A stretch of 64,000 nucleotides of DNA, taken from the NCBI GenBank assembly GCA_977862235.1, contig OZ374559.1, forward strand, positions 1,674,001 to 1,738,000, given 5' to 3'. This stretch comes from Dudresnaya verticillata (Eukaryota). The notes beneath the pieces are model-generated. The model searched no databases. It was given only the letters and a program-made list of their open reading frames with translations, and had not been told where the DNA came from. This document shows positions 28,215 to 56,090 of the stretch, piece after piece (within the stretch, counting starts at the first letter, position 1; each line of letters starts with the position of its first letter). The position numbers and the translations under genes are program-made.

Positions 28215-29126
28215 TGTGGTGCAAACGACCTTGACGGAACACCGCCGAGCAGTTCGGGGCTCGGTGGGTAGTGACGCCCGTGGCGGTGAGTAACCTCGCC
28301 TTGGGCGACTTGTGGTAGAGCAGTTGACACGCCTTGGACGGACTGTAAACGCCCGAGGCGGAAAGGAAGAACAAAAGAGAACAAAAAGAGAACATGTCAA
28401 AGACGGGTAGAGACGTGGAAGCACGGGAGGTAGACGCTTAGCCGTAGGCAGTGGTAGGGTACGCGCGTGCGGAACGGGGAAGTCTGGACCAAGGCCGGCT
28501 TGCCAGGAGTTTATCTCAACGTCTGAGACGGATCAACTAAGTATAGAACTACCTAGCGGCGGCGACGCGTGCGTACACGCCGCGCGGGAGCTCGGGACAC
28601 GTGTTGTCCGGAGGCGCGTCTGACAGATCCGTCCGTCATGCAGCCGCGCTCCTGACAAATAACGGGTAGTTTCCCCGCTCGAGTCCTTACACTTACACGT
28701 GGATGTACTTCCTTACAGCCCCACGCGCCCCATGGTGCGCGCGATCTCGATCCGCACTAATCCCGATCCAGTCCGGATTCGGGCCAGCCATGCGGATGTG
28801 CCAGGCTTACAGGCGCGTGCCTTACACATCTTAATCCCGATATCTGATCCCGATGTGGGATCCCGAGGATCCGGATCCGGGCCACGCTTACAGCGAACGT
28901 TCCCGCCACTGTGCCATGCGCGTACGCGTGGCGCCGTACAGTGTCCCGGGTTCAGGCGTGCGGTCTGCACGCCAAGCGAGCCGTTCTGGCCCGAGTGGCC
29001 AGCGGCATGCGTCGCTGACATGTTTGCGCCGTAGGCGGGTTTTGTGCGCCGTTAGCGGTCGCCCGTCGGTAGACGCGGAATATCAAACCGCTTGCAAGCG
29101 AAAAAGGGACCCCCCTTGGCACTACA
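28215..29126 (-). repeat. 3' LTR of element C
   Basis: TGTGGTGCAA...GGCACTACA; PPT GGAGGGGGTCG at 29127-29137 (minus); similar to 54209-55122. Confidence 0.95.
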
Positions 29127-33075: not shown

Positions 33076-35361
33076 TTACCTGCGTTGCGCGTCGTCGATG
33101 TTTGGCGGTAGGCGCGTGTGCTTCTGACGGTGATACCACACAACGTGCGATCTCAGTAGACTGAACACTGGTTCCCAGGTATTCGCTGAAGCGGGGTATC
33201 CAAACCACTTGACGCGGTAGAGGATCTCACCGTCTTCTGCGTGTGCGTGCGACTCAACCCGTTCGATAACGTACTCCTTCTCGCTTGTAGCGATCGACGT
33301 GGGCTCCTGCCGTTCTAACGCCTTGGGCAGTTCACTTCGTTGCGTGATGGGCGTCTGCACCGGTTCTGCAAACCGTACTCGACGAGTCGATCGCCTAAGG
33401 CACTGGGTCGGTGCCCCGAGCGCTTGTGTAGCGGGTTATGGTTCTTCGCTTTTGCGTACTGGTTCCTCGCTTCCAGCGGCGTCCTTCGCGTTAGCGCGGT
33501 CTTCCTCATCGTCAGTCGATGCGCTCGAAATGGGAGCTACCTTGGTGGCCGGCGAAGCCGAGGTTGCGTGTCCCATTCGTGTACGGATGCCTGGACTCTC
33601 CTCCTCGTTGGAAACGGATTGCGAGACCCCGTCGTCAGGGTTGGCGGCGAAGGGCGAGAGCTCTGCCAACCCACGACTTCGCGGCGTTGCGTCCGTCCGC
33701 TCCTGCGAGTCTTCCGCGCTTCGCGGTGTCCCTGTGACTCCTGCTGGGTCCGCCTGTGGCGTGTCTGGGGTTCCTGCTCTTTCGTCGGTTGGCGTGGGTG
33801 CAGTGGGCCCCGGTCCTTCAGGTGGTCCCGGTAATTGCACGGTTGCGGGGGCGGTGTGCTCTGGTGGGGTTGGCGCCCATACCACGCGGTTCCGGGATAA
33901 CCGTTCGCGTTCTCCACGTCCCTTGTCGACGGTAACTGTCTCGTCGTTGACGTGAGTTACTCGATAGGGTCCATCCGCCACAGGCGCGAGCTTGTGCTTG
34001 CGTTCTGAGCGATCGGTGCTCCCGCCGCGGGCGAAGTATTCCTTCCGCATGAATGCAAAGTCGCCAACAGCGATGTTCTCCTTCTATTTCCTCAGACGAG
34101 TATCGAAGTTCCGTTTGTAACGCGCCTTCGTTTTTGCGAGCGACGCTTTAGCGGTTACCATCAATGCGGACAGCCAGGTTCGCCACTTGATGTAGTACAG
34201 TCCGGCAGTGAGTACGCTTTCAAGAGACGGCTCCGCTTCCAGCGACAATGGCCGCGGGGGCTTAGATAGCACCAGCTCGAATGGGGCGAGGTGGGTAGAC
34301 GAGTGCAGTTTCGTATTGTACGCGAACGTCAGAGCATCGGTGAACAAATCCCAGTCCCTTAGGTGGTCTGCTACGTAGTGACGCAGGGAGGCGAGGATTG
34401 TTCGAGTGAATCGTTCCACTTGGCCGTTACACTGCGGATGGTACGTAGTGGTGAAGAGATTCTCCACCCCTAAGATTCGACAGACGTCCTGGAACAACTT
34501 AGCTACAAATTACGGCCCATTGTCGGACAGCAGCTTCTTGGGTGGGCCATACACAAACACCCAGTGTCGAACAAACGCCTTAGCGATTTCCAATACCGTA
34601 ATCTTACGTAAGGGAACCATCCCTACCAGCTTTGAGAAGCGGTCCACGATGACGAGTAGGAACTTATTCCCCCGCTTAGTGCGTATGAGCTCCCCGAGTA
34701 TATCGATGGACACAAACTCGAGAGGCTCGGTTGCTGGGAACAGTTTCATCTCCTTCACGTTCTTTCGCATCAGTACCCGGTTCTTCGCGCAGGTAACGCA
34801 ATTGCGGACGGTCGCGTAACAATCCACCGACATAGACGGCCAATAATACTCGCGTCGAAGCGTATGGTACAGCTTCCGCCCTCCGGGATGTCCTGCTAAT
34901 TTAGCTTGATGCCGGAGATGGAGCAATCGAACGCGTAACGCGGATGGTACAACGACTTGGGGTCAGGCCTCGACGGTCCGAACCAATAGTCCCTGTTCAT
35001 CCGTTGCAAACGGTAGGGTGTCTCCGTCGTCTAGACGTTTCCGGATCTCGGAACAGTACTGGTCACTGCCCTGAGCATGCACCAACTCTTCATACGTCAA
35101 TTGACGGAGGAGCACTTCATCCGCCGGTGGCGCGCTGGTAACCAACATCTGGTCGAACGCCTCGAACTCTCGTTCGGAGAAATCGACTTCGCCCTGGCGT
35201 TTGACATATCGCTTTCTGCGTGAGCGTAGCCGTCCTCTGACGAGTGATCCCCGTCCTTGACGCAACTTCTGTGGTAACACGGGATATCATCGTCAATTGG
35301 TTCGACAGTTTCCCCGCTCGTCTGTAGATGTGAGAGGGCATCTGCCTGAGTATTCAGGTAT
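33076..35361 (-). pseudogene. pol: pol of element C, 3' part: RNase H end, integrase, chromodomain
   Basis: YLNTQADALS, HPGGRKLY, SDNGP*, QVERF, EYVIERVESH...WFGYPASANTWEP. Confidence 0.93.
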
Positions 35362-36130
35362 AACACTAATTTCGCCGGCTACAGAATTTCCAAAACAGAA
35401 CAGAATTTTTTGAGGGTCCTTGAATCCCGGCGTTCGATAGCGCGTTGGAAAGGGGGCGCTACCCTGAGAATAGTGGTGCAAACAGATCGGAGCAAACGCA
35501 AATATTTTCGGAGTTATGCGCTCCGGCATATGGGCCCCGGGTGGAAAGTTCCCGAAAGTTGTGATTTTTCCGAAAAGTTCCAATTAAAAATTATCCAGAA
35601 ATTGATTCTGGCCCGTCCCGCCGCCCGCGCCCCCGCCCCCCGACCGCACACCGCATTCTGGCGACTTCCCGCCGCATTCCGACGCGCTCGGACTTGGCTT
35701 CCCACCGCATTCCGACGCGCGCTCGGCCACCTCCCCACGTCCGACAGCCACTCCCACAATCACCCTTCCTGGTGCTGCTACTGGCCCACGCATTCCGCAT
35801 TCCGGCGCGTGCGCACGCGCTCTGCTTCTGCCTTGCGCGTAATGAGGCGCGCTTCCCCACCCCCTCCCAGACCCGTAGTGCCGCTCCCCGCCCCAGTCCG
35901 GCCTGTGACCGCACTCTGTCTCACGCTCCCTGCCGTTCACCGACACCTCGCCGTCACCCTCCCCCGCGCTCCTGCGCACCGCGCCCGGCCGCATTCTGAC
36001 ACGTCCTCACAACTGGGCCCACTACCCGCCCGACCTGGTACACTACCGGGTAGCTAAGCCGCTTGCACACCCGCGGTTCAGACTTAGCTTGTGGCGTAGG
36101 CGGGCGCTACAGGCGTCGAATGGCCTTGCA
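35362..36130 (+). repeat. Left terminal inverted repeat (~770 bp)
   Basis: Near-identical reverse complement of 49118-48550, then similarity to ~48110; multiple CCGCATTC motifs. Confidence 0.93.
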
Positions 36131-36189
36131 TTTCTCGTGTGCTGCATCAACCCGAGAGTACACTTTACTGGTTGTAGCTGTTTCTCGTA

Positions 36190-39100
36190 TCAAGAGCCGG
36201 CATACCTAACTAACAACGGCGATTCTCTGACTCTCTTCTGGACGAGCTGCGGTAGACGTCCCTTCGTAAGAGCTTCGAATTCGACCATTACGGTCGCGAC
36301 GCCGACAGTACCAGTCCATGGCTGCTTAGTCGCTGAGTATATGGATGCCTTGTACTTTCCGTCCCAAGCACCCTTACCGTCATACGCCTCGTACCATCTT
36401 ATATACAGCTCAGTAGCCTTTCCCGTAGCGTCCTGCACAACATCTAGAATCTGTCCAATCCAAAATGTGCATCGTGCGGTGGCGTTCTCCCTCACAACGG
36501 CAACGAAGTAGTTCTTCGTGTACTGCAGGTCTGAAGAGGGGGTCACAGTCTCCTCCTCACCGTCATCCCCTTCCGGTACGTACTCCAGCGCCGCTCTTCC
36601 GCTGTACTTTCCCCTTGTCTCAAATATGTGTCCCATATCCCAATGAAACGTTTCCAGCCTATCTCTGTACACGTAGTCCCGCAATTCCTGCAGCTCCCTC
36701 ATCTTTCCCGTGTCATTCACACGTATCTCTTCAGAACGAAACCTGTCGTTGACTTCCTTCAAATCTGGCGGCGATTTGACCGCTGTTGCTGGAGTCTTGC
36801 CAAGGTCAGGAGGGGATAGTATGAACCCCTTATCCTCTCCTCCTGTCTGCAACGGAACCCAGTCATCCGCGCATGTCATTCTTAATTGACAGCCTGTCAC
36901 GAAAGCTGCAACAGATTCTGCCTCTTCCGTCGCAGCTGGACCCACACGGTGGAATCTGAAATAGCGATAGGTCGTGAATGCCTCAACATTACCAATGCAT
37001 CCTTCCTGTCGACACAGGCCTGAGAAATTCACAATTTGAAGCATGCGACTGACAACTGGTTCTAGACTGTACGACTGCCGAAGCTCTTCCATCAATTCTG
37101 TCATTGTGACTGCGTCCCGAACTTTAAGCCGGCGTGCCGTGCACGAAAAGGCCTGATCTATATCTGTGTGAGTGTGCCCGACGGGCAGGAAAGACACGAA
37201 GACCTCTTGGAACACACCCCATGCAACGAGACTCTCCAGGTATGAGAACAAAAAAGGTATTTTTGTTCTCTCTCGAACAGTTGTCTACTTGTAGAAATAA
37301 AGTCCCTTGTAGCTCTCCTCTGGACTGTTTGTCCGCAAGCGTTCTGTGCAACGCCTCGATAATGTGGTTCGCGCCGGTATCGAATTCACCGGTCATTGTG
37401 TACAAGTGCAGACGCTTCTCAGCCCTGTGTTCAAGCACCCCAATAAGTTTCGGTTTCATGGCATGCCCAATGCTGGCTTTGGACGACACCACAAAATGGG
37501 GAAGTCCAAATGCGGACTGATCAGCACCATCCACTATGAGGGAGCAATACTCTTGCGGCAATAGTATCGCCTTCTCACATTTTTCTGATATTCACGTCTC
37601 TCTGCCTGTATGAATTTCAAGTGAATGTTGCGCCGCTCATGCAGGTGTTCAGTGCCTGCTCCAGAGGTCCCTGCCTGAGCAAGTCGCTCGCGAATGAGTT
37701 CGCATTCGCTGCACTTTGCAAATCGGTGTGTCTTTCGCACCTTAATGCGGGAGCAACTGTGTTTCCATACAAAGTAAAAGTAACTCTGACACGGAATTTC
37801 CCTGTTTCTGTACAGCCTGGTGTGGTACAATTTGAATATGTCATACACAACTGATTTCTGAAAATAGGGGAGGTGTGACTCCCCGTTATCGGGCATTGGT
37901 TCAGCAGTGCTGTCTGCAAGACGTTCAAGGAAGCAAATGATAGCATCCTGCTGATGGGATGAGGTATCACGCCTCGCATTGTTTGGGAGCTGCAGCTTCC
38001 GGGACTGCCTCGTGCCTTTTACAGAGGTCTGTAAGTCACGGGAGAATCCAAAGGCCTGCTCCAGAAAGTTGTAACAGACAGGCTGGCGGTTGAAAAAGTA
38101 TTTCATCTTTATCGTGTCCAACAGATTGCGAAGATACGTTCGCCTTGCTTCCGTTCATTCCGGCAATTCTGCGCGCCTCCGCCTTTAAGTACACTTGCTC
38201 CACACTTTGGAATCATTTGTTCCCGATGCAGCATCTCATTGACTGCGTGTTTGCGCGTTCCAGGTCTTTGAAGAGGTTCTTATGTCTCTTCTGAAGACTT
38301 CCTCTCCCACTGAATGTCTGCTGCTTTCTCTCCCTGTAAGTATACTTTCGCTTCGTCCTGACCTGCACCTTCTGAAAAGGGTCATACGCATCGTCATCAC
38401 TTTCCGACACGTGTCGTACGGCGTCCGCATCATCATGGCTGGCCTCCCTCAAATGCTCTCGCGGTTCACTCAATTCCTCACTGCTCGGAGCATTGCCAGG
38501 CGGGGGTGTTGTTCGAATTGACCGCGCTGCGGCATCCGCTTGCGGCCCGGCACTTTGTTGGAGGGGTGATGCTGGCCTTGTCGTTTCAACTGGTGTCATC
38601 TGCTGGCTCGATGCGGTAGGGGCCACCGCTGCGGAATTGTGTTCTGCAGTTGACGTCGGGGGGCAATTGCTCAGTATTCGGTAAATTCTGCGACGAACTA
38701 TGCCCTGTCGTGGAGAGTACAACCATCTCTGGCACAACGGCGCGATTTCTCGATTGCCGAGCTCCTGAATGTAGTTCACATCCCATGCATGAAAACCCCC
38801 ACCCATCTCCCCAAGTGTGTGCGGAACTGAGTCCGTTGTCTTGTACTTGTATTTGTACTGAAGTTTCTCATACGGTTGCATGATTTGTGCTCGGTAAACC
38901 ACAACCACATTCTCCCCTTTTTTCTGACTGGGAGACAATTTGTGGCCATGCAGGGTGACACAATACCTGCCAGATTGGTCTGCGTCCTCTTTTGTCCCCG
39001 GTCTCTTGACAATAGCAGTGCCGACCATTTCTCTGTCATACAGAAGAGCAACACGCCCTTCGTCGCGCGCGTTTCCTCCTCCTTTCTTTGCTTCATTTTC

Positions 39101-39208
39101 TCGCTCAGCGAAATCCGTAGTTGACGGGCTCATTTCCATGTCGTTCAAAATGTCCTTCCGCGACGGCATCTGCACACAGCTTGTGAGAGTGCCACTCGTT
39201 CCCTTCAC
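36190..39208 (-). pseudogene. Sola1-like DDD transposase (one gene broken by a stop and frameshifts)
   Basis: CC..KxF, PVCYNFL, FAKCSEC, LIVDGADQ, LQVDNCSRENKN, FLPVGHTHTDIDQAFS; ORFs 39208-38213, 38121-37534, 37561-37124 and 37251-36190 are colinear. Confidence 0.82.
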
Positions 39209-39919
39209 GCTCTAAGCAGAGCGCCCGCTTTCCAGTCTGTTAAGGCACCTGGCCGACCTGGCGGGGAGGCTCAGCACTTCGCAGCAAAACGCGTGCGCAT
39301 TAAATACCCTCTGTGATACCGCGGCGCGCCGCCTGTTGCCTGCTCTTGAGGCTTCACACCCGTGGAGCGGCACGAGTGGCTGCACGGGGTGCATCTGGGT
39401 TATTCTGCAACCCAGATTCTGTTTGTGATCAGATTCTGGTTCTGCACTTGGCCAATTACATTTCAGGACAACTCTCCGCATGCCTGCGGAGCCACACAAG
39501 CTGCAGCTTCTGGGAGGCGGACACATAAAGCTGACGGTCACCCTGGGGTGACCTGGCGGCTGCAGTGCGCCGACATCACGAGTTGATATCGTTTTCACAC
39601 GCTTCCAAGGAAGTCGCCGCACAGCACGAATGGCAATGCTGCTGTTCCAGTTGTTTCAGTCTCTCTGATGGTTTTGGGATCGGCGAAGCAGACAACAGGG
39701 CTCGTATCTCTCCTCGACAACAACGTCCGGTTCACGACGCACATCACCAAGCCTGGCGTGAGCGCGGGCATCATGGGCAGGCGCATTTCAGCCGAACGGG
39801 CCTGGCTCATCTCAGCCGTCCTCACTGCGAACCGTGTGAGTCGTCTGCAGATTGCCGTGCATGGGTGAGCATGCTCATCCTGGACGGCACGCATTGGCGT
39901 TCAAGAATTCGGCAATAGA

Positions 39920-40800
39920 GAAGCTGAGAATGTTGCCGCGCCTGTGTCTCCAAATGATGAACTTGTTCCTAGCATTACAACGAACTTCGTGGAAGAGTTA
40001 GAAAGCGGTGTATCTGTTATTGGCAATGACTTTCAAGACCCGAATGTTTCCAGCTCAAGACAGAGGGAGGCTTCAGCACGTGCATCGAGAGCTTATGATT
40101 GTGTTAAACTCATCGGCCGACTCGCAACATTTCATTCAGGCGCAGTGAATGTGATCAGTCCGGGCTGATCGAATGGCCATTCGAAGAAGTGATGGTGCAA
40201 ACATCTTCATCTAATCTCTTACCACGGCTTGATATCGTCTTACAAAAGCTGCTTCGAGGGCTTTCTACGAATAGTTCTGTGCTCTCAGCTGATGCATTCA
40301 CAGTCAGTCATCAATCTCTAACCGAAGGCACAAAGCCGAAGGGGAAGGAGCTCATTACCGCCATTTCTGATTCGCGTGGTGAAGAGGACTAACTGAGAAA
40401 CACTGGAGCTAATACGCACCGAATGATCAGTTTTGGTATGCTGTTGTTGGGAAGCACGATCAACAAGATCATGGACGTCGTAATGGGCTCTGGTACAGAA
40501 TCACGTGAGTTACAAGCAATGGTAGAGCCCTTTTTGCCTATGGTTGTCCAATCGCTAAGAATATCCCAGGATTCCTTAACTCTGAATGCAGTCAACAACG
40601 TGCAAAAGCTCCTGAAACTTACCCTTCCCAACAAAGCTTCCGTTGCAGGAGAAATGTCGGAAACAATTGTCAGCGTTCTCTCACGAAAGGCAGGACTAGT
40701 CACATATACAGAAGACTTATTTCATGCTTGCCTGCGGACAGCAGCGGCATTGATTCACGAAGTCGGCGGTAAGCATTTCAAGGTAACCGAGTCGAAGCTC
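39920..40800 (+). pseudogene. UTP20: Captured fragment of U3 snoRNA-associated protein 20 (HEAT repeats), part 1
   Basis: SRAYDCVKLIG, LLRGLSTN, NTHRMISFGMLLL, MVEPFLPMVVQSL, LLKLTLP resemble the UTP20 C-terminal third (recognition by eye). Confidence 0.6.
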
Positions 40801-40809
40801 TTGTTGGGA

Positions 40810-41419
40810 TATCGTGTAACTGCCTTGAGAATGCAAAGGCCGCATCAGGGGCTTGTATTGCAGTGCGGAAAACTTGACTACCAGGATCCTGGTATTTCGG
40901 CATCTCCTTGAGCTCGAGCTCAAGGAGATGCCGAAACCTGGGGAGAAGAAGGAGTGTTGGCTTGTGCTACATGAAGTGAGTGCCCCGCAAAACGCTGGCG
41001 CCTTATTGCGCTCGGCGTACTTTCTCGGTGCGGACGGTGTCATTGCCTGCAAGAGAAATAGTACGAAGTTGACACCTGTGGTGTCGAAGGCGTCTGCTGG
41101 TGCACTCGAGGCGATGACAGTGTACGGTGTTAGCTCTATACCGAGCTTTGTCAGGGCAGCGAGGAGGGACGGATGGGGTGCGATTGGTACTGCCCTTGGG
41201 GACGGGGCAGTCGATGAAAAGACGGCTGAGCTGGACAGTTCATCGCTGGTTGTGATGGGCAGTGAGGGGCATGGTCTGAGGACTATGGTGAGGTATGAGT
41301 GTGATTTACTGGTCAGGATACGCGGTCGAGAGGAAGAGTACGACGCGGAGGATGCCGTAGACTTTCTCAATGTGAGTGTCGCCGGTGCTGTGACGTTATT
41401 TCAACTGTTAGGGCGATAA
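40810..41419 (+). pseudogene. Captured 5'-truncated SpoU/TrmH-family rRNA 2'-O-methyltransferase (MRM1/RlmB-like)
   Basis: RPHQGLVL, LHEVSAPQNAGALLRSAYFLG, VVSKASAGALE, VMGSEGHGLR, VDFLNVSVAGAV. Confidence 0.88.
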
Positions 41420-41479
41420 GCTGGAGATTTCTATTCATGAGTACGGGTCTTCCAAGGCGTTAAGGATGGCGCTAGGATG

Positions 41480-42800
41480 AATTGTGGTTCTAATTCAAGC
41501 ACCTCTGCCTGCCTTCAGATACCGAAAATCGAAACGATGCTACTGATAATGCATTATCATGAGAAAAGCCAAACACGGAAGCGCTAACTGTAAACATCAT
41601 GGCTGCAATGTGGCAAGATATGGACCTGGAAGGGCCATGGTATGCTTGACCGAGGCCACAGAAGCTAAGACACAATGGGAACAGGGGCTCTGGCAAGCGT
41701 CTCTGGAGGCCATCAATACGGTATTTCTCGAGTTCCCTGCGGAGGTGCTGGAGGCTAGCCTCACTCTGCTGAGTGGGAATACTTGCACTGGGTGGCGAAG
41801 ACCATGATGCGGACTGGGAGAAAACGTACGCCGTCTTGCAGGGCATAGAGATTGCTTTACGTAAGCAACAAGACATGAGCAGGGCGGTACAATTAGCATT
41901 GCAGCTTGTTATGTGCCCTTTGTGGGAGAGGTTGCCAGTCCTTTTAGTTCACAAACAGCAATGGATTCGACTGTCTTCAGCACAGCTCTTAGGAAAGCAT
42001 TTATCTGCGTCAGGTGGTCGACATTCTTCTCCGAAGGAGGCCAACGACACTGTTCATTTTGTTTTGTGGTCAACAACTGGAACAGTCCGCGCCATTTTGA
42101 AGTCTAGCTGTCTTCAGCTAGAAGCAAACATTTATGAGAAGACCTAGCTCATCAGTGCTTGAAGAACTTACTTTGCATCGCACACGCGACCTACAATAAT
42201 TCTGATATTGCAGAGCTCGCGGAAAGTGACAGTACAGCAATGGGGGGCAGCAGTGAAGCTAAAGAAGAAGATTCTTCCGGGCTGTGGTGGCTGCTGGCAC
42301 GAATGAGTGGGCTTTCTGTGCATTTCGGTGAGACAGAAGCAGCCATGCTTCGTCGAGGCTGCTCATTACGATTCTTACTGATAACAAGCAAATGGGGGGC
42401 TTTGACTGGGTCCAACGCCAAAAGGAGTTTAACATTTCTCCTGTTGTCAAAAGTTTGGAGTCTGGGCAGGGTTCACATAAGACTAGCATGGCCGCTATCA
42501 ATGCTGGTGTCAACAATGAGTCTAGACTCAGCTACTCAGCTGAGAAAAGCCAGATGCTAAGTGTCGAAAACTTGCGGGCGATGGCAAGCACACTTTAGGA
42601 AGCGCTAATTGACGGGCTCGGCGCAACAGAATACTACGGGGTATATCAAACCTTCCGCCAGAAGCGAGAGGACCAGAAGCAAGGGAGAAAACGACAAGCG
42701 GTGCTTGAATTGGCAGTCAATCCCGAGCGAGCAGCAAAGAGACGTAGGAAAAAGGCGGATACTCGGAAACATCGGAAACCAGGCCGTGATGTGAATAGGA
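41480..42800 (+). pseudogene. UTP20: Captured fragment of UTP20, part 2 including C-terminus
   Basis: LLVHKQQWIRLSSAQLLG, CLQL...KNLL, WLLARMS, and basic tail KREDQKQGRKRQAVLELAVNPERAAKRRRKK (frame at ~42640-42790). Confidence 0.68.
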
Positions 42801-43875
42801 GACTATTCGGACGCGCGTCAGGCGGACTGGAAGGGGAGTCGGGCAGGATACCGTGAGTGATGGATTCGTGGGGCGGGAGTCGTCGCGGTGAGGGTAACGG
42901 CGTTTGTGGGGCAGTGTGTTGTGGCAGGCGTATTTGTGTCCACATTCTGGGCATTCAGGTCGTGAGCTCGCAGCGCCGAGGCCAGATAGATTGTGGAGTT
43001 TGCGGGCTCTCAGGACCTGTTCCCCGATACTGATATTGCACTTTGGGCTTCTGCGTTGCCGTGAAGCGCAATATCTGTTCTCATATCAATGTGACTTGGC
43101 CGCATTCAGAAGCTGTAAAGGTGTTGACGGCGGCCCAATGGAAAGACCCTTTTACAAGCTTATTCAATATCATTGGACAGAAAATCTATACAGGTTTTTC
43201 AGCGCACATTTTGCCACATCAAATGAACAGCTATTTGGCCCGGCGCTCTCGCCCCACCTGTTCCCTGATACTGATATTGCACCCACAGGTGTTGACACCT
43301 CCCACCCCCGAGAACCTGTTCCTCGTAAATTGACCGCCGCGCCCCCCGCTGGCACGCCGCTGGCAACGGTGTGCCAGTACTCACCGAAACCGTGTGTGGC
43401 ATGCTATTTTACTCGCAGTATCAGGGGGTATCAGCACCTGGCCAGGCCGGCCTCAACTTCAAAGCCCGGCCAAGTCGGCTGGGACAGCGAGCAGCATGCC
43501 CTAATTGACTTTGTTGCATCTCGCAGTGCAGGTCCGGTGAAACCTGCATTCTACCAATTCCAACTGTACGGCCTGTGCTAAGAATAGTTCTGATGGAGAC
43601 TGCCCACACCCGGTGAACAATCCACGTGACCTCCCGTGCCATCTCGGAATTTGCGGCACATCCATGTCGTACTCCCGCCGTCCAGTGTGTCGAAAGCCCG
43701 TATGGTGTCAGTCGAAAACGGCACCGTGCAAACATGAGCCGGGGACGTAAAGAATTTCTAGCGGAAGGTTTTCTGAACAGAATCTGGACAACTCGTCGGA
43801 CATGCAGTACCCCTTTCCGTACTCTTTCAAGGAGAGCGGTTTTCACGTGCACAGTGAGTCTTTCTCTCGCACACC

Positions 43876-46800
43876 ATGTCGAAGCGCAAGAAGCGGAACA
43901 GGGGGTCAAGTCAGCCCTTGAGGAAGGAGGAGATAGCACAGGCACTATTTGGAGATGTCATGGAGGGGTCTACCAACATTCGAATAGACCCCAGGTCCTG
44001 TGTTCCGATGACTGATATAAGGGACATCTCGAGATCCGGTGTTGAGAGGCTCAAGAAGATTTTCAGGGGTGGTGCGACGAGGAGCGCTAACTACAACAAC
44101 GGGTACATTGCCGGTTCTGATGCGCCCATACTGGCTCGCCTAACAGGTCCCTTCAGGAGTTTCATTTTTGAGTTTCTACGAGCTAAACGGAATGCGGATG
44201 GGACAGAGTACACAGAGAAACAGGTGAAAGAAGAGGCCTCCAGTCGGTCGGAGTGGTTCGGAGTTGTTGATGGCATGCATCGACTTATCGCCATTACGGA
44301 GCTAATCGATGAAGACCGGGAGACATGGAAGGGTTTGCTTTGACTGCCACTGTGCTTAAAGGGGGCACAACATCCAGATTCTGAAGCAACTGGCTCGTCA
44401 TCAGAACAGAAAGCACGACTCCAGCTTTTTTGTAGAGACCACGTTTTACGATCAGATATGCGGTCTGAGGAAAGAGGCAGACCGTCTCGAAGCCAGTAAT
44501 GGGAATATTCCGACTGCGACGGCAGTTGCCGAAGCATATGATGGATGCAGTCACCTATCGGAAAACACTATCAAACAGACAGCGGCAACCGTTCTTCGTC
44601 TTGACCGTCGCGTTATCGATGTAATTGGGAAGATAATGAAGGAGGAGGTCCCTGAACTAGCAACTATGCAACTGTTGACTGCTTCCGGAAAGGCCATAGA
44701 CTCAAACGTTGCGATGCAGAATCTGGATTGCAGAGTATACAGACGCTTCATTCACGTCAGTTCCATCAAGTCTTCCAAGGCCTTTATGAATGCAGGCAGC
44801 TCTGACAACGGCATTACTGTTCAAATAGCTACCCTGTACAGGCTTCGAGAGGTGTCAAGGACACACAATTTCAAACCTGTTTCGGCCAAACACACACAAG
44901 AGCAATTCGTGAAAGCTTCAGCCGCCCTTTCCGAGACTCGGAAATTTGAAGCGATGAGGGAGAGGACAGAATGGCCGTCAGGCATGAGTACATTAAGAGA
45001 AAACCTGTTACACACTACGAAGCTGGACGTCGAGGTCATCATGAATCGAGGTAATGACCGTACACTGTTGAAAAAAATAGTTGAGATGTACAGAGAGTGT
45101 TGTCCGGAAGAGGCCCCAGTGAAGTTGCAGAAGTACAAAGATCTGCAAACTGTGATGGATTCGACAGAAGGCAGACGTGATGACGCTGTCATGACCCGCC
45201 TGGGTTCCAATGAATGTGGAGCAAAAGATTCTGACGGTCAACAGAATTTGGACTGCACGTTGTCACCGCAGGTGGACGCTACCGGAATCTCTAACGACGA
45301 CGAGGTTTTGGACTTAGTAACATCAACCAATTCGAAAAGGGAAGAAGGTCGCGAACCAGCAGAATCTGGACAGGCACCCGTCCAGAACGCAGACCCTACC
45401 GCTGCATGTGCAGCCAAAGACCATTCTGTACCGGAAAAGAGTCCCACAGACCCCACTATATCAACTGTGTCATCAAAGCAGTCTGTTCGCCTCAACATGG
45501 GTACTAATCCTGTGCCGGTGGAGGACGGATCGCTTTCTGTTCCAATAGATTATCTTGCGGAAATGAAACTGACATGCTTTCAGATGACATGGCAGAGCTA
45601 CGACAGTACCGTAAGGAAGGAAGGTGACAAAAGATTCGATTTAATCCTCACAGATCCACCATACGGTACACCGAAATCGCAGTCTAAGTCGGGGAGGTCA
45701 TTCGATAATTACCTCAGCGAGGAAGACATTAAGAAGATAGTTGAGTTCTCGAGGCGCGTACTTGTAGCAGGGGGTGGTTGTTTGTTTCCACGTCATTCCT
45801 GAACTTCAGTGTATTCCACGAGGCTCTGAAGAAGGCACAATTCATGTGCCCAGCATACCCATTCGTATTCTCCAAAGACCCCAAGACCATGCAGGAACAC
45901 CGGGGGAGCGATATGCCCCAGAACTGTGTGGAAATAGCCGTCATGGCGCGTGCCCCAGGTCAGCACGGCGGAGGGTTCTCGCTCGACCTCAGGAGCGAGT
46001 ATCACTGCATCCCCTCCCCAGAAAAGCGGGAATTCGCGTGCATGTCCTCTCTACCAACACCGAAACACAAGTTGCTACGACCAGGCACCAAGTCCCCAGT
46101 TCTGGTCGAAGAGAAGTCTCCCGAAGTACTTGTGGAGATAATGACAACATTCTGTCCGGAGGGCGGGTCAGTTCTGGATATGCACAGCGGAACCATGACG
46201 ACTGGGATTGCAGCTCTCCGAACAGATCGTCGGTGTACACTAATCGAATCACAGGTCGAAAAATTCAAGCTGGGGGCTGAACGTTTGCGTAGGCTTGCCA
46301 CGGAAGCATATGAAATGAAAACAGGTCGTAAACGTTTGGAATCAAGTGCCCATGACGAACTGAATGGTATCGGTGAGGCAGTAAGAGGAAGTGTTGTCAA
46401 AACAGATTCTGCTCATCCAACAAACCATTCCGTAACGAGGAAGGGACCTGAAATGTCCCATCTAACGACACCGTCCGAGCACGTATTGGATGACCCCGAA
46501 GAGAGTATCGAGAAGCACGGCAGAAGTGAAGACAAAGTTGTAGGAAGTGTGGAGCTAAATGAAAAGTGCAGGAGAAGGAAAACACCTGAACCTTGTGCAA
46601 TGCCCAAGGTCGGAGAGAGAGTCATGCTTCTTGCAGATGATAAGGAAGTGGGGGAGGCCGTGTTGCATCCTGAAAAGACTCCAGGAGGGAACTGGAATGA
46701 ACGCTTGCACGGCCACGATCTGTCAGAATCTGCCAAACCAGGGGAGCATCTTGTGGTCGTCTACAGTTTGAATGTCATGGCGGAGTATGAGCTAAGTTCG

Positions 46801-46905
46801 TATCCGTATGTATTCAAGGGAGTAGAGGACCCTCCTGCCAATCTCAAGGGCCTAAATGGCTTATTGTTCTCGTGGGACTTGCACAACATGAAGAAGATTG
46901 GGTAG
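43876..46905 (+). pseudogene. ParB/Srx-like domain fused to beta-class N6-adenine/N4-cytosine DNA methyltransferase (~1000 aa; ~3 single-base frameshifts)
   Basis: NLS-like MSKRKKRNR; GVVDGMHRLIAI (44263); FDLILTDPPYG (DPPY 45653-45664); EKSPEVLVEIMTTFCPEGGSVLDMHSGTMTTGIAALRTDRRCTLIE. Confidence 0.85.
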
Positions 46906-47413
46906 GAATTATAGTCAGTACAGTACTATTGTCATAGGCCGAATTGAACATTTCTCGAGCATCCGTATTCTGAACATGTCTTTGCGTCTTGCTTCCGCCA
47001 TGGTCCATGAATTCGACGTCGTTCAGGCACCATTTACTCTAATAACGCCAATGCTTCCACGTCCCGTACTATGAACGCGGGGGTTATATTTGGTCCAACA
47101 AACAGAATCTGTCACGGAAGGCTGTCGCGAGTGTGGCACATGTACCGTACTGCTGCAGCTGTTGGCAACGTTGCCGCATATTGGCAGTAAGTGATTGATC
47201 GACTAAGTACCGGAGTGCGCCCAGGGCTGTCTCCAACGCATATGAAATGGACACCCGTCAGCTCGTGGAAAGATGGACCATGTATTGTCCAGGCACGCAG
47301 TGATCCTGTCGCAGTTAAAGGCCTCGTCCATTTCGGAAAGAGAGCTGAGATGAAACGAAGTGTTCGTTCACCACCATAATCTGCTGTGACCAGAATACCG
47401 CTGTATTGAGACC

Positions 47414-47934
47414 ATGGATGACTTGATTCTGGATGTGGAAAAGCTGTACAACGCCGTTAAACGTCGGATGGAGGAAGATCTTAATCGTGAGGCACGAAAA
47501 TGGACGCACCAAAGCCCTAGCAGTGACGACGACATTCTGGACAACCACAATGACCTGGATCGTGCTCAAATGGCTTGGGAATCATCACAGCAATTTTACG
47601 CAGACAAGACGATGATGGAGCATTCCCACCATCAGAAAGCTTTGGAAAAGTTGTACAGGTTGTTGCTGAAGAAAATCTTTCTCGTGGGAAGGGGCAAGTA
47701 CGTACACGGTGCAGCCCATGCTATAGACTTCGCGATCGTCGAAACGCTGCACAGGGCGGAGAGAACGCGTATCAACTGGACCGCTACACACGTCTGCTTT
47801 GCACAAAATTCTACATGTCCAACAGCCGCGCAATGAAACCGGAGGTGAGGATGTGCATCATGAGGAGCCTGAACAATGAACTGTCTAGTTGTGAAGGGCT
47901 GTATATGCGGAAGCATGATAGCAGCGATTGCTAA
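47414..47934 (+). CDS. Small hypothetical ORF inside the Sola-like element (possibly frameshifted)
   Basis: 140-aa helical, charged ORF 47414-47836 with overlapping continuation to 47934; no recognisable motif. Confidence 0.35.
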
Positions 47935-48109
47935 CGTTAGAGATAGTAAAGTGGTGGCCTTCTCCCATGAGCACAGCAATGCGCTTCATTCCATTTGGCG
48001 GCCTACAATCGGGGATGTGCCCCATTGAAGTATGGCATGGTCCTCAGCTGCGGCGCAATAAACGCGGCGCAGACAACAGAATGCAATGGGGTCAGGCTGG
48101 CATTGTGCA

Positions 48110-49118
48110 GAACCGCAAGGGAAATCGACTCCTGTAGCGTCAGTCTACGCCACAAGTTAAGTCCGAACCGCGGGTGCGCAAGTGGCTTAGCTACCTGGTA
48201 GTGTACCAGGTCGGACGGGTAGTGGGCCCAGTTGTGAGGACGGGTCAGAATGCGGGTGGCCGTGCCGCACGGGAGCGGGGTAGGGGTGAGGGAGGCGTGT
48301 CGGGGGACTGCTGGGAGGGGCTGACCATGCGTCAGAATGCGGCAACTTGATGTGGACGTGTTAGAATGCGGCCGGGCGCGGTGCGCAGGAGCGCGGGGAA
48401 GGGTGAGGGAGGCGTGTCGGGGGACTGCTGGGAAGGGCTGACCATGCGCCCGAATGCGGCAACTTGAGGTGGACGTGTCAGAATGCGGCCAGGCGCGGTG
48501 CGCAGGAGCGCGGGGAAGGGTGAGGGAGCCGTGTAGGGGGATTGCTGGGAGCGTGAGACAGAGTGCGGTCACAGGCCGGACTGGGGCGGGGAGCGGCACT
48601 ACGGGTCTGGGAGGGGGTGGGGAAGCGCGCCTCATTAAGCGCAAGGCAGAAGCAGAGCGCGTGCGCACGCGCCGGAATGCGGAATGCGTGGGCCAGTAGC
48701 AGCACCAGGAAGGGTGATGGTGGGAGTGGCTGTCGGACGTGGGGAGGTGGCCGAGCGCGCGTCGGAATGCGGTGGGAAGCCAAGTCCGAGCGCGTCGGAA
48801 TGCGGCGGGAAGTCGCCAGAATGCGGTGTGCGGTCGGGGGGCGGGGGCGCGGGCGGCGGGACGGGCCAGAATCAATTTCTGGAGAATTTTTAATTGGAAC
48901 TTTTCGGAAAAATCACAACTTTCGGGAACTTTCCACCCGGGGGGGCCCATATGCCGGAGCGCATAACTCCGAAAATATTTGCGTTTGCTCCGGTCTGTTT
49001 GCACCACTATTCTCAGGGTAGCGCCCCCTTTCCAACGCGCTATCGAACGCCGGGATTCAAGGACCCTCAAAAAATTCTGTTCTGTTTTGGAAATTCTGTA
49101 GCCGGCGAAATTAGTGTT
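48110..49118 (-). repeat. Right terminal inverted repeat (~1 kb) containing ~119-bp tandem repeats (48245-48540)
   Basis: Reverse complement of left TIR; GAATGCGGCAACTTGA recurs at ~48335 and ~48453. Confidence 0.92.
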
Positions 49119-51578
49119 GTATCCCTTCTTATACTTCACGACGAAGTCGAATTCAGAGAGGCGAAGGCGCCATCTCATTAACCGTCCCGAGGGGTCGCTG
49201 ATTTCCATGAGCCACCTCAACGACGAATGGTCCGTATGGACTACGAAGGACTCCATCTGAAGATAGGTCTCAACGTCGCGATCGACCAGACTACTGCTCG
49301 GCATTCCTTTTCGGATACCGAGCACTTGCGCTCCGGAGCGGTTAACGAGCGTGACCAGAAGCCGAGCGGCTTCCGTTCACCGTCAGGCTGCGTTTGAAAG
49401 AGTGCGCAGCCAACTTGGTATTCACTCGCGTCACAATCAACGGAGTACGGTAGTCCTTGCTGTGGCAACGCCAGGATGGGCGGGTGAGTCACCGCTTCGA
49501 CAAGCGTGCTGAATCCCGGGGTTTGCCCCTCGGTCAACGGTTGTAACCGGAAGTCTTGCTCTTTCCTCAACAATTTGTTGAGGGGAGCGGCGACATGCGC
49601 GTATCGCGATACAAACCGTCTATAGACGTTGCACAATCCGAGAGAGCTCCGTAATTCCTTCTGGTCCCGCGGATGCTTGGCTTCGTGTAACGCGGCTGTG
49701 ACCGTACGGTCTACTTCCAATCGACCCGGACGTATCACATGGCCTAGGTAGTTGACGGTCGGTGTGAAGAAGTCGCACTTGGTTAACTTCAATGTCACCC
49801 CGGCCCGATGCAAGGTCGAAAGGATCTCGTCGACATGACGGAAGTGACTATCGATATAGTTCGAGAAGATGATCACATCGTCAAGGTAGACGAGGCATGA
49901 GCGCCACTTGTAACGAGCAAGCAGGATATCGAGGGTCCGTTTAAACGTGGCCGGTGCGTTAGTAAGTCCGAAGGGCATACGCTTGTAGCGGAACAACCCG
50001 GCATGGCACGTAAACGCCGTCTTGTCCCGATCTCGCGGGTTGATGGGCACCTGCCAATAACCACTATTGCAGTCTAGGGTAGTGAAGACGTTCGCTTCCC
50101 CTCGACTGTCAATACGTTCGTCGATTCGCGGGAGAGGGTACGTATCTTGTACCGTTACCGCGTTCAAGCGACGGTAGTCAACGTAGAAGCGGAGTGTACC
50201 ATCCTTCTTGGGAGCAAAGACGACCGGCGACGCCCATGGCGATTGTGTGGGTTCGATAACCCCCTGACGCAACATGCGATCCACCTCCGCTTGAGCGAGT
50301 TGCCTTTGCTTTGGGCCAGCACGGTAAGGCGGGGATGAAATTGGCCTGGAGCCGGGGAGCAAGTCAATATAGTGCTCCGTGGTTGCGATTTCTCCTAATG
50401 AACCGTTCCACATCGACGAGTACATGCGCAGCATCTCCTTCAGCCACCCTTGATGTTCTTCTGAATGACTCAGGTCCAACTCGTCCACTGACGGAGGTTC
50501 AGCTACAGTTGCTTCGATCGACTTAGCGAATGTATCCGGCTGCGCCGTTACTCCATCATTTGTTTGAAAACGGAAGTCTTGATTTGCCTCTTCCTCCGCT
50601 GTCTGCTCCTCGGTGATACCTAGGACATCGGCCAGACTTATATGAATGGGGAACACTGCTGTGGGATATGGCAACGCGGTAGCGACGACTTGTCCTTTGA
50701 CGAGCGCTTGCGGACGCGGGGAAACGTTTGCGACGAGAATCCGTAACACTCTCAGGGGCTCTACTTGAGCGACCACGTTAGTAACGGTCAAAGCTTGCCG
50801 ATCATATAGCGTTCCAAACGGTTGGATGGTAATGACCCCTGTTCGCTCGGTCGTTACCGAGGTCCACTTTTGCCCCTGTGGCGGGATGATCGTTCGTTCC
50901 GCAACGCGTATCTTGGGCGACGTGCGCCCTTTGGCCGGACCGTACTCTTGTTCCGTTGGCAACGGGGGTACGACGGGGGCCGGCGCAGCGGGCGGCGCGT
51001 TATAGGGACACGTGTCCCATCGTCCAACTCAATCTCGCGACTCCGCGGATAAATCGCTTCGACAAAGCGGTCGCAAAAATCGCAACCGAGTATAACCGGC
51101 GCAGCGAGCCGTTCACAGACGATCAACTACAACTTTACAACCCTTCGTCCGAGACGTACAACTAAGTCGATAGTGCCCCGGGTCTGAATCGTCTTGTTGT
51201 TAGCGTCTGATATGACGGGGAGACTCTTGGATACGATCCGTGATCGTGCTTCTAGCGGAATGTCGTCAATGCGAATGAAAGTCGGACCAGCCCCCGTGTC
51301 GAGGACAGTACGTTTACGTGCCAAGGTACCTACAGTTACGCAGAGATCGGCGTATACTTTGTAGTTCCTTTTTTCCATTACGAACAACTGTCCCCGGGCC
51401 TGTGGGGCTGGTACGTACGCCAGGGGCGCTTCAAGGACGTCTGTGACGAGTCTACCCGCCTATCGGCGTATTTGTTAACTAGGTTCGGGTCCTCCTTCCC
51501 TGTCAGCACCCGAGGTGGAAGCCTCTCTGCTTGGTGCGACACCCCAGTGTCAGGAGTTGGTACACTCATTAGTTTTTC
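49119..51578 (-). pseudogene. pol: pol of element C, 5' part: protease, RT, RNase H
   Basis: VLDTGAG, WASPVVF, VDYRRLN, YLDDVIIFS, CDASEYQVG. Confidence 0.95.
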
Positions 51579-54103
51579 GCCTGCGGCGGTTTTAGCGGCG
51601 CTGTGTAGCGATTTATCACCGTCGGATGACGTTCTGCTGCATGCGGCATAGGTCCGCCCCTTGGCGACGGTGGTCGTGCTGCACGGCGTGCTGCTTCACG
51701 CGCGGCGCGTTCTTTGTACCGAGTGTACGCATCAGCGGGGACCCCAGCCTTGTCGGCGTCTGTTAAGCCTTCGTAGTTGGCGATCGCTTTCATATACTCG
51801 CTCATGCGGAGGAAGCAGTCCGGTGCGATGTGGCCACGGGCATAACACTGATGACAGATGAACTGTCTGCGAGCGTCTTGACGGAACGGACCCCTGTCTT
51901 GCCAACCTGGCCTCGCCCGATGGACATGGGGGGCATACTCCGAGTTCGGAACGCGTGGCGCGGGCACAACGGAACGCCCAAAGGCGAGTGTAGGGTCCAT
52001 TGCCCCTTTGTCCTCGTCTTCGACGTAGCTGTCCGTTGGTAACGCTGAAGTTGGCACTGACGCTTGTTCGTCGGACAAGTAGAGATCGACATCGGCGTGT
52101 GTTTCCATCTCGTCCGCATGACGGGTGACATCACGGAACTCAACGGAAGACTCCGCTATCATAGCGCGTGCGGCAGGCTTCGTGCCCCTTGTCTGTTGAC
52201 GTAGAACCGCTCGGTTGCCGCCAATGGCGGGGCGCAATGCGCGAGCGGCTTGGGCCGGGGCCATTATATCCCGTCTCACTGATGTCGAGCCGGCCCTGCC
52301 GTGTCTTGCGCGTTGCGCGTCGCCTTCGTCCTGCGCGAAGTGGACTAAACGTTCAAAAGATGACTCCGCCCTCGGCGTTTCTTCGCGGAAGCGGGCCACC
52401 AAGGACCTGATCGTCGGGTCTAACCCATCGATGTACAGTGTCATCTTTTCCCATTCAGGATAAACGTTACCGCAACGAATACATGCGCCGGCGAGTCTCA
52501 TGCCGTAAGTCGTTTCGTCTTCGCCCTCCTTCTGACTAGTCGAACACAGGGCGAGGACGGCGTCTCGAATCGCCGAAGGCGTGGCGTACGTGCAGAGGAG
52601 GTAGTGCACCGCCTCTGGGTACGATGATACGCCGCCGCGGTGGCGTGAGGACGTCGATTTGACGGAGCGGAATTGCGTGGCTGCCGCACCTCGTAAGAAG
52701 TACGGCAGCGCGACGAACGCTTGTGCCTCGCTCATCTCTAGCGTGTCCGCTTCGTCCGCGAACCGCGTTAAAAACTCCAGGACCATGACGGGGTCGCTGC
52801 CGTTGAAGGCGGCGTCCTTCATTGCTAACTCGAGTCGCTTGATATGGTCTTTGACCTTCCCGGTTTCGTGTCCAGAGCGTTTCTGTCCCACGTCTCGAAG
52901 ACGGCATGTGCGGTACGATAGCAACTGATCGAAGAGCGGATTGGAGGGGCTCAGCTCCTTCAGTCCCTTGTATCGCTTTCCGCGGGGTCGCATGGCACTG
53001 CTATGAGCCATGCGGTCGTCGTCGTCAGACGAAGAGCCTGTTGACCTGTTGTCACTAGACGTGTCCGAAGAGGATGGTGATGAGTCCCCCCGTCGGTGAC
53101 GGTTCTTCTTCCGTCCACGACGCGACTTACGGCGATCCTTGCGTCGGCGACGGTCTTGCTCGGAACTATCGTCATCAGACGGCGGCCCTTGGCGCCACTT
53201 GGCGGTTTCCAGTCGCTCTAAGCGGCTCGCTAATCGCTGAAAGCGTTCGCGTGAACTCAGTTCCGACTGGGAATGGACCGTCAGTGCTGTCGGCTGCTGG
53301 GCCTTGGCGCCGTGGTTGGGGTCCGTCATGAGACGGTCGAGGTCGGAACGGAGTCCTTGAAGGGCACCGTTCTGATCTTCTTCCAACGTCTGCAGACTGC
53401 TGAAAATACCTCCGACCTTCTCGTCGAGCATCTCCGCGAATCGAGCGAGTAAGTTACCGTCTTCAGCGACTCATACTTCCCGAATCCGCTCGCGAGGTAT
53501 CGTGAGATTACCAACGCGGGCGGATGCTGGGGAAGCCAATGGCGGTGTGAGCGCGGGAGTCGACGCCTGAGGCGGATCTCCCGTGCTGCGCTGTTGCGCT
53601 AACGGCCTGGCCGGTGAACATCCGGCACTACCGTGGGGTGAGGGGCACCAGCCCCTAGGGATTGGTGATTCGTCTATGACGTCGCGCCCTGCAGGGCGTT
53701 CTTGGTCGTCGTCGACGGGTAAGGTTGGTTGGTGGACCGGAACTTCCGGTTGTTCCTCGACGATGTCGGCTTGGGCTCCGTCCTCGACGGGTCGCTGTTC
53801 GGCTTGTACCGTGTCAGCGGAAACCACATGCGAGTGGTAGGTTCGGAGGGCCGATTAGTTGGGAACGGTGGTACGGATGACGACGGGTATCGGCGGGGGA
53901 GGTACTTCTCCCCTGTTGAGCGATATATGGGAGTGATCGTCTCCAGGACCGGTCGGAAAGGCCGATGCGATCTCGGGGCTCACGAGGCGCCCAGACCTCG
54001 TTGTCATCCGCTGTAGCGACCGTTCCGACGCGGGGACACTCCCCGTCGTCGATGACGGTCTTCTTGAACTGGGGCCTCGAGACGGCAGCGGCCGTGAGGC
54101 CAT
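51569..54103 (-). pseudogene. gag: gag of element C
   Basis: 620-aa ORF with FNGSDPVMVLEFL and CHQCYARGHIAPDC knuckle; upstream pieces share VSPEI..AF with gag of B. Confidence 0.88.
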
Positions 54104-54187
54104 AATGCAGTCGTAGAGTTGCTTGAACGTCGTGGACGATTAGCGACGGACGTCGCACGACGGAGTAACTCGTTGAAACGTAGCACA

Positions 54188-54206
54188 CTTCTAGGTCGGG
54201 AGACCA
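54188..54206 (-). promoter_or_regulatory. Primer-binding site of element C (probably tRNA-Tyr)
   Basis: TGGTCTCCCGACCTAGAAG 2 nt inside the 5' LTR. Confidence 0.85.
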
Positions 54207-54208
54207 GT

Positions 54209-55122
54209 TGTAGTGTAAATGTCCTTGACGGAACACCGCCGAGCAGTTCGGGGCTCGGGGGGTAGCGCCGCCCGTGGCGGTGGGTAGCCTCGCCTTGGGC
54301 GACTTGTGGTAGAGCAGTTGACACGCCTTGGGCGGACTGTAAACGCCCGAGGCGGAAAGGAAGAACAAAAGAGAACAAAAGGGAACACGTCAAAGACGGG
54401 TAGAGACGTGGAAGCACGGGAGGTAGACGCTTAGTCGTAGGCAGCGGTAGGGTACGCGCGTGCGGAACGGGGAAGTCTGGACCAAGGCCGGCTTGCCGGG
54501 AGTTTACCTCAACGTCTGGGACGGATCAACTAAGTATAGAACTAACTAGCGGCGGCGACGCGTGTGTAGGCGCCGCGCGGGAACTCGGGACACGTGTTGT
54601 CCCGAGGCGCGTCTGACAGATCCGTCCGTCATGCAGCCGCGCTCCTGACAGATCACACGTAGCTTCCCCGCTCGAGTCCTTACACCTACACGTGGATGTA
54701 CTTCCTTACAGCCGCACGCGCCCCATGGTGCGTGCGATCTCGATCCGCACTATCCCGATCCAGTCCAGATTCGGGGCAGCCATGCGGATGTGCCAGGCCT
54801 ACAGGCGCGTGCCTTACACATCTTAATCCCGATATCTGATCCCGATGTGGGATCCCGATTGGATCCGGATCCGGGCCACGCTTACAGCGAACGTTCCCGC
54901 CACTGTGCCATGCGCGTACGCGTGGCGCCGTACAGTGTCCCGGGTTCAGGCGTGCGGTCTGCACGCCAAGCGAGCCGTTCTGGCCCGAGTGGCCAGCGGC
55001 ATGCGTCGGTGACGTGTTTGCGTCGCGGGCGGGTTGAGCGCGCCGTTGGCGGTCGTCCGTCGGTAGACGCGGCATATCAACCCGCTTGAAAGCGAAAACG
55101 GGGGACCCCCCCTGGCACTACA
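54209..55122 (-). repeat. 5' LTR of element C
   Basis: TGTAGTGTAA...GGCACTACA; roughly 94-95% similar by eye to 28215-29126. Confidence 0.95.
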
Positions 55123-56090
55123 ATTTCCGGGCTTTGACGGATGCGGCCGTCAAAGTAAATGTTGATAACCTTCCGGTCGTTTGCCCAGTGACCTCTTTGA
55201 ACAATAACGAGAAGCGGTACTCGGGTGAGAATTAGTCCAGTGACACCACCACTGCGAGGACTATGTGAAGCGTAGAAATAAAACGGTGGGGGTATAACTT
55301 GAAGTACCACTAGAATACGCTGTAGGGCATTGGTGACATGCTGTGAGTCCGGAACATCTCCCTGATGTGACCAGTATAATTCATGAGGTGCAGCCGTATT
55401 CCGATGGGTGTAGTACCGCAATTGCAATGCTAGTGGGTTGGCAGCACCGGTACTATTACAAAATATGGAAGATGATGGTTGTCCGCGGGTAAGACGTCCC
55501 TTGCGCGAGCGAGGGCGTGCGGAAAGTTGAACACGAGTTGATGCGAGTGAGGAACCGACAGTTTGAACCGTTGTGTCTTGTGCTCCGAATCGTCCGGCCT
55601 GAAGATTCACGCTATGAAAGAAGGTATTGGAACTCAATAAGGGAGGCGTCACGCGCACTTGAACTGTCGATTGGTTTTACTAAACCGCAGTTGCGGATTT
55701 TCCAAATAACAGATGCTGGAATACCCGCACGGACGTCTTGAAGGGTACCACGAGCATCATCCTGCCTTCTAAAGGCTCAAAGTAGGTCGCGCTGGCTTTG
55801 TCCTATGCCGGAGTCTGTATATCCGGCTCGAGTATGCATTGTACGAATGGAGGACATGTATTGGTCCAAGGAGCTAGAATGGACCCTGTGTTCTTCGAAA
55901 AGGAACCCAAGATAGGCTAAGACTGTACCTACATCGGCCGGTAGAGCTGTGTGACCTTCTGAAGGGCAAAATGTTTAGAACTTACGCCATTGGCTGGACT
56001 TAGAGCTATCCGTTGCGGTATTCAGGGCGTTTGAGGCGAGTCGAAGACTTTCTATAGCGGCAGAAGTGTCGGGGAGGCGAGAAGCGATGG
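55123..56090 (-). pseudogene. Tyrosine recombinase of the DIRS-like element
   Basis: SQWRKF, VLAYLGFL...QYMSSIRTMH (core binding), ASHSPRSGG, RGHW, NIYFD; cut at the C-terminus by the LTR of C. Confidence 0.87.

Follow-up and report, generated by a model that had tools for sequence, protein, structure and literature searches.

In a DNA transposon of the red alga Dudresnaya verticillata, the transposase and a DNA methyltransferase-like protein (MTase) encoded on the opposite strand carry homologous copies of a domain of about 100 residues. The domain lies at the N terminus of the transposase and at the C terminus of the MTase, and it recurs in a third class of ParB-like proteins in the databases. 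Our favoured interpretation, to which we give somewhat less than an even chance, is that the domain is a common tether by which each enzyme docks on the same chromatin protein ligand. The element is contained in a 64,000-nucleotide stretch of contig OZ374559.1, which was analysed as a whole and is referred to here as the window.

Homology between the two copies is well supported. A BLASTP comparison of the open reading frame at 39208–38213 (minus strand) with that at 45778–46905 (plus strand) yielded 38 identical residues out of 103 (37%; E = 5e-17). The aligned spans correspond to 38756–39055 on the minus strand for the transposase copy and to 46618–46902 on the plus strand for the MTase copy. 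A Smith-Waterman alignment of the two copies scored 159, and neither the 5,000 full nor the 5,000 block shuffles reached this value once (mean 36; maxima 82 and 71, respectively). A profile built from six database transposase copies only recovered both window copies from 5,472 six-frame peptides (E = 4e-17 and 2e-14; next best, E = 1.1). No third copy was found in the window by tblastn, the next match having an E value of 1.3. Identity between the copies is 48, 62 and 39% at the first, second and third codon positions, and the third base is the same for only 16 of the 38 conserved residues. Saturated third positions together with conserved residues indicate that the copies are old and have been maintained at the protein level. 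These results bear out the preliminary description of this DNA, which had proposed the homology from the letters alone, had regarded the similarity as old, had placed both copies within a few bases of the aligned spans and had suggested alignment against shuffled sequences as a check.

The transposon occupies positions 35362–49118 (13,757 bp), starts with AACAC and ends with GTGTT. On both sides it is bordered by the target-site duplication GTAT (35358–35361 and 49119–49122, plus strand), which is seen in the sequence and in an empty-site contig of run X1; this contig skips 13,761 bases, that is, the 13,757 bases of the element plus 4. The left terminal inverted repeat lies at 35362–36135 (plus strand); the right one, at 48109–49118 (minus strand), contains a 117-bp tandem unit. 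The two arms are 97% identical over 651 nt, with an extension at 83%. Of 15 matches to the motif CGCATTCYG in the window, the terminal repeats hold 14, against a mean of 1.3 expected by chance. The six in the left repeat (35652–35998) and the eight in the right repeat (48246–48825) point inward and are candidate transposase sites. By definition, CACTA/En-Spm/Plavaka elements have CACTA or CAC termini and a 2–3-bp duplication. Assignment to this group was rejected: the sequence CACTA begins at the third base of the repeat, and the flanking triplets, TAA and TTG, differ.

Between the two genes lie captured host-gene fragments (39587–42853, plus strand) that were identified by Pfam matches and are Pack-type cargo. 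They include a piece of a SpoU RNA methylase (40829–41416; E = 1.4e-24) and two pieces of UTP20 (UTP20, E = 1.5e-4; UTP20_C, E = 0.006), and a perfect 42-bp palindrome is found in the same region at 40895–40936. Downstream of the MTase gene, a 148-codon open frame (47390–47833, plus strand) matched no family in the Pfam scan and none of the related loci by tblastx. Depletion of GATC in the element (observed/expected 0.43) was considered as a clue to the methylation target and dismissed, as it ranks only 15th of 256 under a trinucleotide model. The element is inserted into a Gypsy-type pol gene, as judged from reverse transcriptase and RNase H matches on the flank. Both flanks (1–35357 and 49123–64000) consist of nested repeats including Gypsy-type pol genes; they also contain a LINE-type endonuclease gene (9266–10255), a DDE_1 transposase gene (27141–28424), an 840-bp direct repeat of 99% identity (12938 and 25926) and 28-bp repeats (12474–12589). 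The flanking open reading frames at 13948–16257 and 60815–61672 had no Pfam match.

The transposase gene (36190–39208, minus strand; first ATG at 39169) encodes a DDE transposase with two matches to Pfam PF25273 (E = 1.5e-24 and 7.8e-15). This is the DUF7869 family, which we take to cover the Sola transposases. The gene is interrupted by one stop codon (38213) and by three frame breaks (near 38152, 37585 and 37251). It shares 45% identity with an intact database homologue, P0003, whose domain spans residues 12–109 and whose alignment continues into the catalytic part. In addition, a related copy in run X1 contains a 2-base insertion at 38152, at the frame break; on the basis of this insertion and the P0003 alignment, the open reading frame at 39208–38213 is the N terminus of the transposase. 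A run X1 contig spans the break near 37585 without a gap, and because this break is common to the related copy, an assembly error is unlikely. The C-terminal region of the transposase (36193–36550, minus strand) is conserved across homologues and BAH-like (P0031; E = 0.043). Its identification with the shared domain was ruled out, the two being unrelated by hhalign (E = 0.72). A cysteine-rich region was recognized by eye as a candidate DNA-binding part. Scans with the transposase gave no match in viral contigs and one short contig, devoid of an MTase, in genome contigs.

The MTase gene (43876–46905, plus strand) was assigned by its identity to P0001 and by a family profile. It encodes a ParB-like, beta-class N6(N4) DNA methyltransferase with a DPPY motif and is disrupted by two frame breaks, near 44340–44363 and 45770. 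Identity to P0001, which is intact and ends with the domain, is 38–42%. The best matches of the family profile are DpnA (E = 1.7e-11) and CcrM (E = 2.9e-8), and DPPY is located ahead of the SAM-binding motif, which is the order that characterizes beta-class amino-methyltransferases. The ParB-like label of the N-terminal part refers to a VVDGMHR motif seen by eye. With both of its genes broken, this copy of the element may well be inactive. Sixteen domain-bearing MTases (P0001 and 15 of the 22 new ones described below) were long enough to be checked for DPPY; the motif has been lost in eight of them, and the domain is retained in all. Scans of viral contigs with the MTase confirmed nothing beyond one short, unrelated MTase match, and scans of metagenome contigs confirmed nothing.

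The MTase is a native component of the element and not recent cargo. The preliminary description had reached the same conclusion from the similarity of the two domains; the reason turns out to be a different one, namely that the pair recurs in related loci and in the published Ectocarpus element Sola1-1_Ec32. A metagenome scan returned 51 transposase loci, most of them short, and only six include over 2.5 kb of DNA on the upstream side of the conserved region. Four of these six (L003, L007, L017 and L018) contain an MTase gene in divergent, head-to-head orientation, which is complete only in L007 and L018. Of these, L018 is distant from the window element, with a transposase identity of 29% and a GC content of 34%. 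The shared domain was found in 0 of the 51 loci, and the four pairs thus establish that the transposase-MTase partnership exists without the domain. In L007 (338–3121, minus strand) and L003 (3–1625, minus strand) the MTase frames are intact and the catalytic motif is replaced, by TAIP and SCIT, respectively; going by these motifs, both enzymes are likely inactive but kept.

Several further features were noted in these loci. Palindromes lie between the two genes in L003 (2366–2506) and L018 (5034–5329), and upstream of its MTase gene (43002–43282) the window element has a 40-bp sequence repeated in direct orientation at a distance of 241 bp, along with a short inverted pair; all are candidate sites for the ParB-like domain. 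The tail of L018 appears SET-like by eye. In L051, arrays of 22–24-bp palindromes (372–692 and 2577–2748) are situated beside the transposase gene, and no MTase was found in this locus. The distant DUF7869 locus L026 (4404–7177, minus strand) has a convergent, probably spliced MTase with a DPPW motif, followed by a SET domain (E = 1e-5), and thereby shows the layout of the accessory gene PAG2 discussed below.

An exhaustive profile search of the database retrieved 192 proteins at E ≤ 0.001. The following class counts rest on the 150 matches listed, 146 of them new, and on a Pfam scan that covered 143 of the new proteins. Among the matches listed are 22 new MTases with the domain at the C terminus (Pfam agrees for 21), seven new transposase-type proteins with the domain at the N terminus (Pfam agrees for two), three spurious repeat proteins and 102 proteins that are short or without class. 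Another 12 are third-class, ParB-like proteins with the domain at the N terminus, three of which match only slightly beyond the domain. Throughout, the domain is placed at a protein terminus, behind a long linker of low complexity. It is optional in both transposases and MTases, each of which have members with and without it. Among 37 long transposase homologues, eight carry the domain, N-terminal every time, and 29 lack it; in a quick tree the eight fall into two clades, each with members devoid of the domain. A word-seeded search with the domain retrieved it in 0 of 31 candidates, though relatives exist by profile search. The domain also offers a sensitive marker for accessory genes that Pfam misses.

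In the third class, the region following the domain matches the ParB-like part of the MTases (hhalign E = 2e-4, probability 46). All six long members have a conserved HxD, H and R in their C-terminal part, recognized by eye, and we take this order to be the 2OG-Fe(II) oxygenase motif. Pfam and PDB profiles gave no match for the oxygenase label. Going by motif, the third class is likely an oxygenase with a ParB-2OG layout like that of the accessory gene PAG3. The window contains no gene of this class.

Alignment of 50 copies of the domain revealed that P78 and W96 are present in all 50, followed by H36 (96%), D97 (94%) and Y69 (92%). The same five residues are conserved in all three protein classes. 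The net charge of the domain is neutral to acidic (class medians −4, −2 and −2.5); the two window copies differ in sign, with −8 for the MTase copy and +4 for the transposase copy. In a weakly resolved tree of 52 rows and 102 columns, the classes cluster (6 changes vs 23 in shuffles), and in none of 200 bootstrap trees is any class monophyletic. The window transposase copy pairs with P0003 (support 94/77) and not with the MTase copy of its own element, which has no firm placement. A separate test with 11 rows did not reject a tree in which the two window copies are held together (p-AU 0.30; alternatives 0.17–0.30). The duplication inside the element that the preliminary description had put forward is too narrow an account, given three protein classes and the pairing with P0003. 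The domain is likely an old module that has moved several times among transposon genes.

AlphaFold, supplied with the 11-row alignment, produced a confident model of the MTase copy alone (pLDDT 90.4, pTM 0.81); the transposase copy, folded as a single sequence, reached a pLDDT of 36. Foldseek searches with the model gave no match at E ≤ 0.001 in the PDB and no significant match in a viral library. The top PDB rows were mostly SH3-like barrels, including Tudor, PWWP, BAH and chromo readers. A wide fold search ranked a KOW domain first (Z = 4.7; 54 residues superposed with an rmsd of 2.4); Tudor, BAH, PWWP and chromo domains followed level with one another, and PWWP-ssDNA and LSm structures were matched as well. 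The domain is predicted to be a small SH3-like barrel; the matches are weak, indicate a common arrangement and single out no family. Methyl-lysine readers of the Tudor, PWWP and BAH kinds bind peptides through an aromatic cage; the domain has conserved H, Y, Y and W residues, and the fold matches do not separate such readers from RNA- or DNA-binding KOW or LSm barrels.

By sequence, the domain appears to constitute a family of its own with no meaningful Pfam match: any one Pfam family was matched by at most 2 of the 11 members, no PDB chain was found at E ≤ 10, and the ESM Atlas returned unnamed bacterial clusters (0.92–0.93) and no usable named one. The preliminary description had likened the domain to the Tnp1/En-Spm family, and its motif order resembles those of Tnp1/En-Spm (PF03017) and DUF8039. 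That the domain is a diverged Tnp1/En-Spm or DUF8039 domain derived from CACTA/Plavaka elements is a real possibility, if a little short of probable, and this origin would fit any function. In red algae, related accessory genes accompany Plavaka/En-Spm elements, according to the available text of a preprint (10.1101/2025.02.11.637652). Against this origin, neither PF03017 nor DUF8039 was matched in the 11 members (E ≤ 10) or in 143 further proteins (E ≤ 0.01), in single-sequence scans that miss remote homology, and the ESM Atlas offered no named cluster.

What the domain does was weighed against the same body of evidence. We favour the common tether over mutual binding and nucleic-acid binding because the invariant residues are found in all classes, the charge is neutral to acidic, MTases lacking DPPY keep the domain, and SET domains occupy other tails. 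The SET domain in the MTase tail of L026 and of the Bostrychia gene PAG2 implies that this slot accepts chromatin modules. The tether has to contend with a domain that is dispensable, being absent from 29 of the 37 transposase homologues and from all 51, mostly short, metagenome loci. Weak fold matches that fit readers and KOW or LSm barrels alike, an oxygenase label with no Pfam or PDB match and a poorly resolved domain tree also weigh against it. Less likely, yet deserving attention, is homotypic assembly, the dimerisation idea of the preliminary description, in which the copies bind one another and thereby join transposase, MTase and oxygenase-like protein in a single complex. It would account for three partner-like proteins each bearing the domain at a free end, for the opposite charges of the two window copies, and for catalytically altered MTases that retain the domain, as expected of scaffold subunits. 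The charge contrast is not general, however, since the median of the transposase copies is −2; moreover, the close transposase relatives P0004–P0010 lack the domain, and the pairs in L003, L007, L017 and L018 persist without it. A complex prediction for the two window copies scored 0.00, with alignments not used and the fold of the partner uncertain, and counts neither for nor against assembly.

We consider it rather improbable that the domain is a KOW-like barrel binding nucleic acid, with element RNA, a methylated base or the CGCATTCYG repeats near the ends of the element as its target. The KOW domain is the top structural match, PWWP-ssDNA and LSm structures are matched too, and CGCATTCYG is concentrated in the terminal repeats; most copies, however, carry a net negative charge, and other candidate DNA-binding parts exist in the ParB-like domain and the cysteine-rich region of the transposase. 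A functionless hitch-hiker or a chance similarity would agree with the broken state of both genes in the window copy. For the family this explanation is refuted, and we regard it as highly implausible, in view of the shuffle controls, the protein-level constraint with saturated third positions and the residues invariant across 50 copies.

In the tether reading, the transposase would cut and paste the element, the ParB-like MTase would place methyl groups on its adenines (or on cytosine N4), and proteins of the third class would oxidize marks on DNA or chromatin. Through their common barrel these enzymes would gather on the same chromatin, where they might dock on a host factor or on a methylated histone tail, and coupling of marking to transposition would allow the element to escape silencing. 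We put forward, tentatively and as a proposal more likely to fail than the tether itself, that the barrel is the address tag of a transposon-encoded epigenetic toolkit: it would assemble a transposase, an adenine-methyl writer and an oxygenase that erases or modifies marks at one chromatin site, with self-marking coupled to transposition in seaweeds. The small size of the domain, its favourable fold prediction and its ease of expression make joint action and target directly testable.

The element type and the two-gene layout are already known from Sola1-1_Ec32, described in the available portion of its report as a giant Sola-type element of Ectocarpus, 21.5 kb long, that has 282-bp repeats, AACCG-CGGTT termini and a 4-bp duplication and whose opposite strand encodes a ParB-like plus N4C/N6A methyltransferase (PMC12477816). 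The window element resembles it in its 4-bp duplication, its AAC...GTT ends and its opposite-strand MTase, here ParB-like by motif, and differs in its length of 13.8 kb and its repeats of 650–780 bp. A domain common to transposase and MTase is not mentioned in that portion, the comparison being one of descriptions and not of sequences. Partial texts on related groups assign PF03017 to CMC elements and divide Sola into three subgroups (PMC4738411, PMC5751038, PMC5199201, PMC4455052), and enlarged En/Spm elements are reported, likewise in partial text, from Chondrus (PMC6431247).

The available text of the Bostrychia preprint describes the accessory genes PAG2 (a PF01555 methylase with SET) and PAG3 (ParB-like with a 2OG oxygenase), which move among transposon families (10.1101/2025.02.11.637652). 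Like PAG2, the window MTase is a transposon-borne methylase, and the third class of database proteins has the PAG3 layout by motif. Unlike PAG2, the window MTase combines ParB-like part, methylase and a new barrel; unlike the Plavaka accessory genes, it accompanies a DUF7869 transposase, and no shared domain is described in that text. Compared with DpnA, CcrM and RsrI, the MTase has the same order of catalytic and SAM-binding motifs but carries additional ParB-like and helical parts at its N terminus and, as a further fusion, the barrel, and half of the relatives examined have lost DPPY. The predicted strand core of the barrel aligns over 50–70 residues with KOW, Tudor, PWWP, BAH and CAP-Gly barrels, from which it is set apart by Z ≤ 4.7, long inserted loops and the absence of a PDB sequence match. 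The VANDAL protein VANC, an anti-silencing factor that induces methylation loss (cited in the available text of 10.1101/2025.02.11.637652), provides a precedent for an accessory protein acting on the epigenetic state of its own element, as the window element may do; the window system would instead add a mark, and the proteins are unrelated as far as tested.

We found no description of the shared domain, or of its spread over transposase, methyltransferase and probable oxygenase, in the literature, supplements and subscription papers lying outside the search. Two papers, in their available parts, propose that algal giant transposons mark themselves by captured bacterial-type enzymes (PMC12477816; 10.1101/2025.02.11.637652). 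Those parts offer no link between such enzymes and the transposase, and one domain present on three protein classes is a link of this kind.
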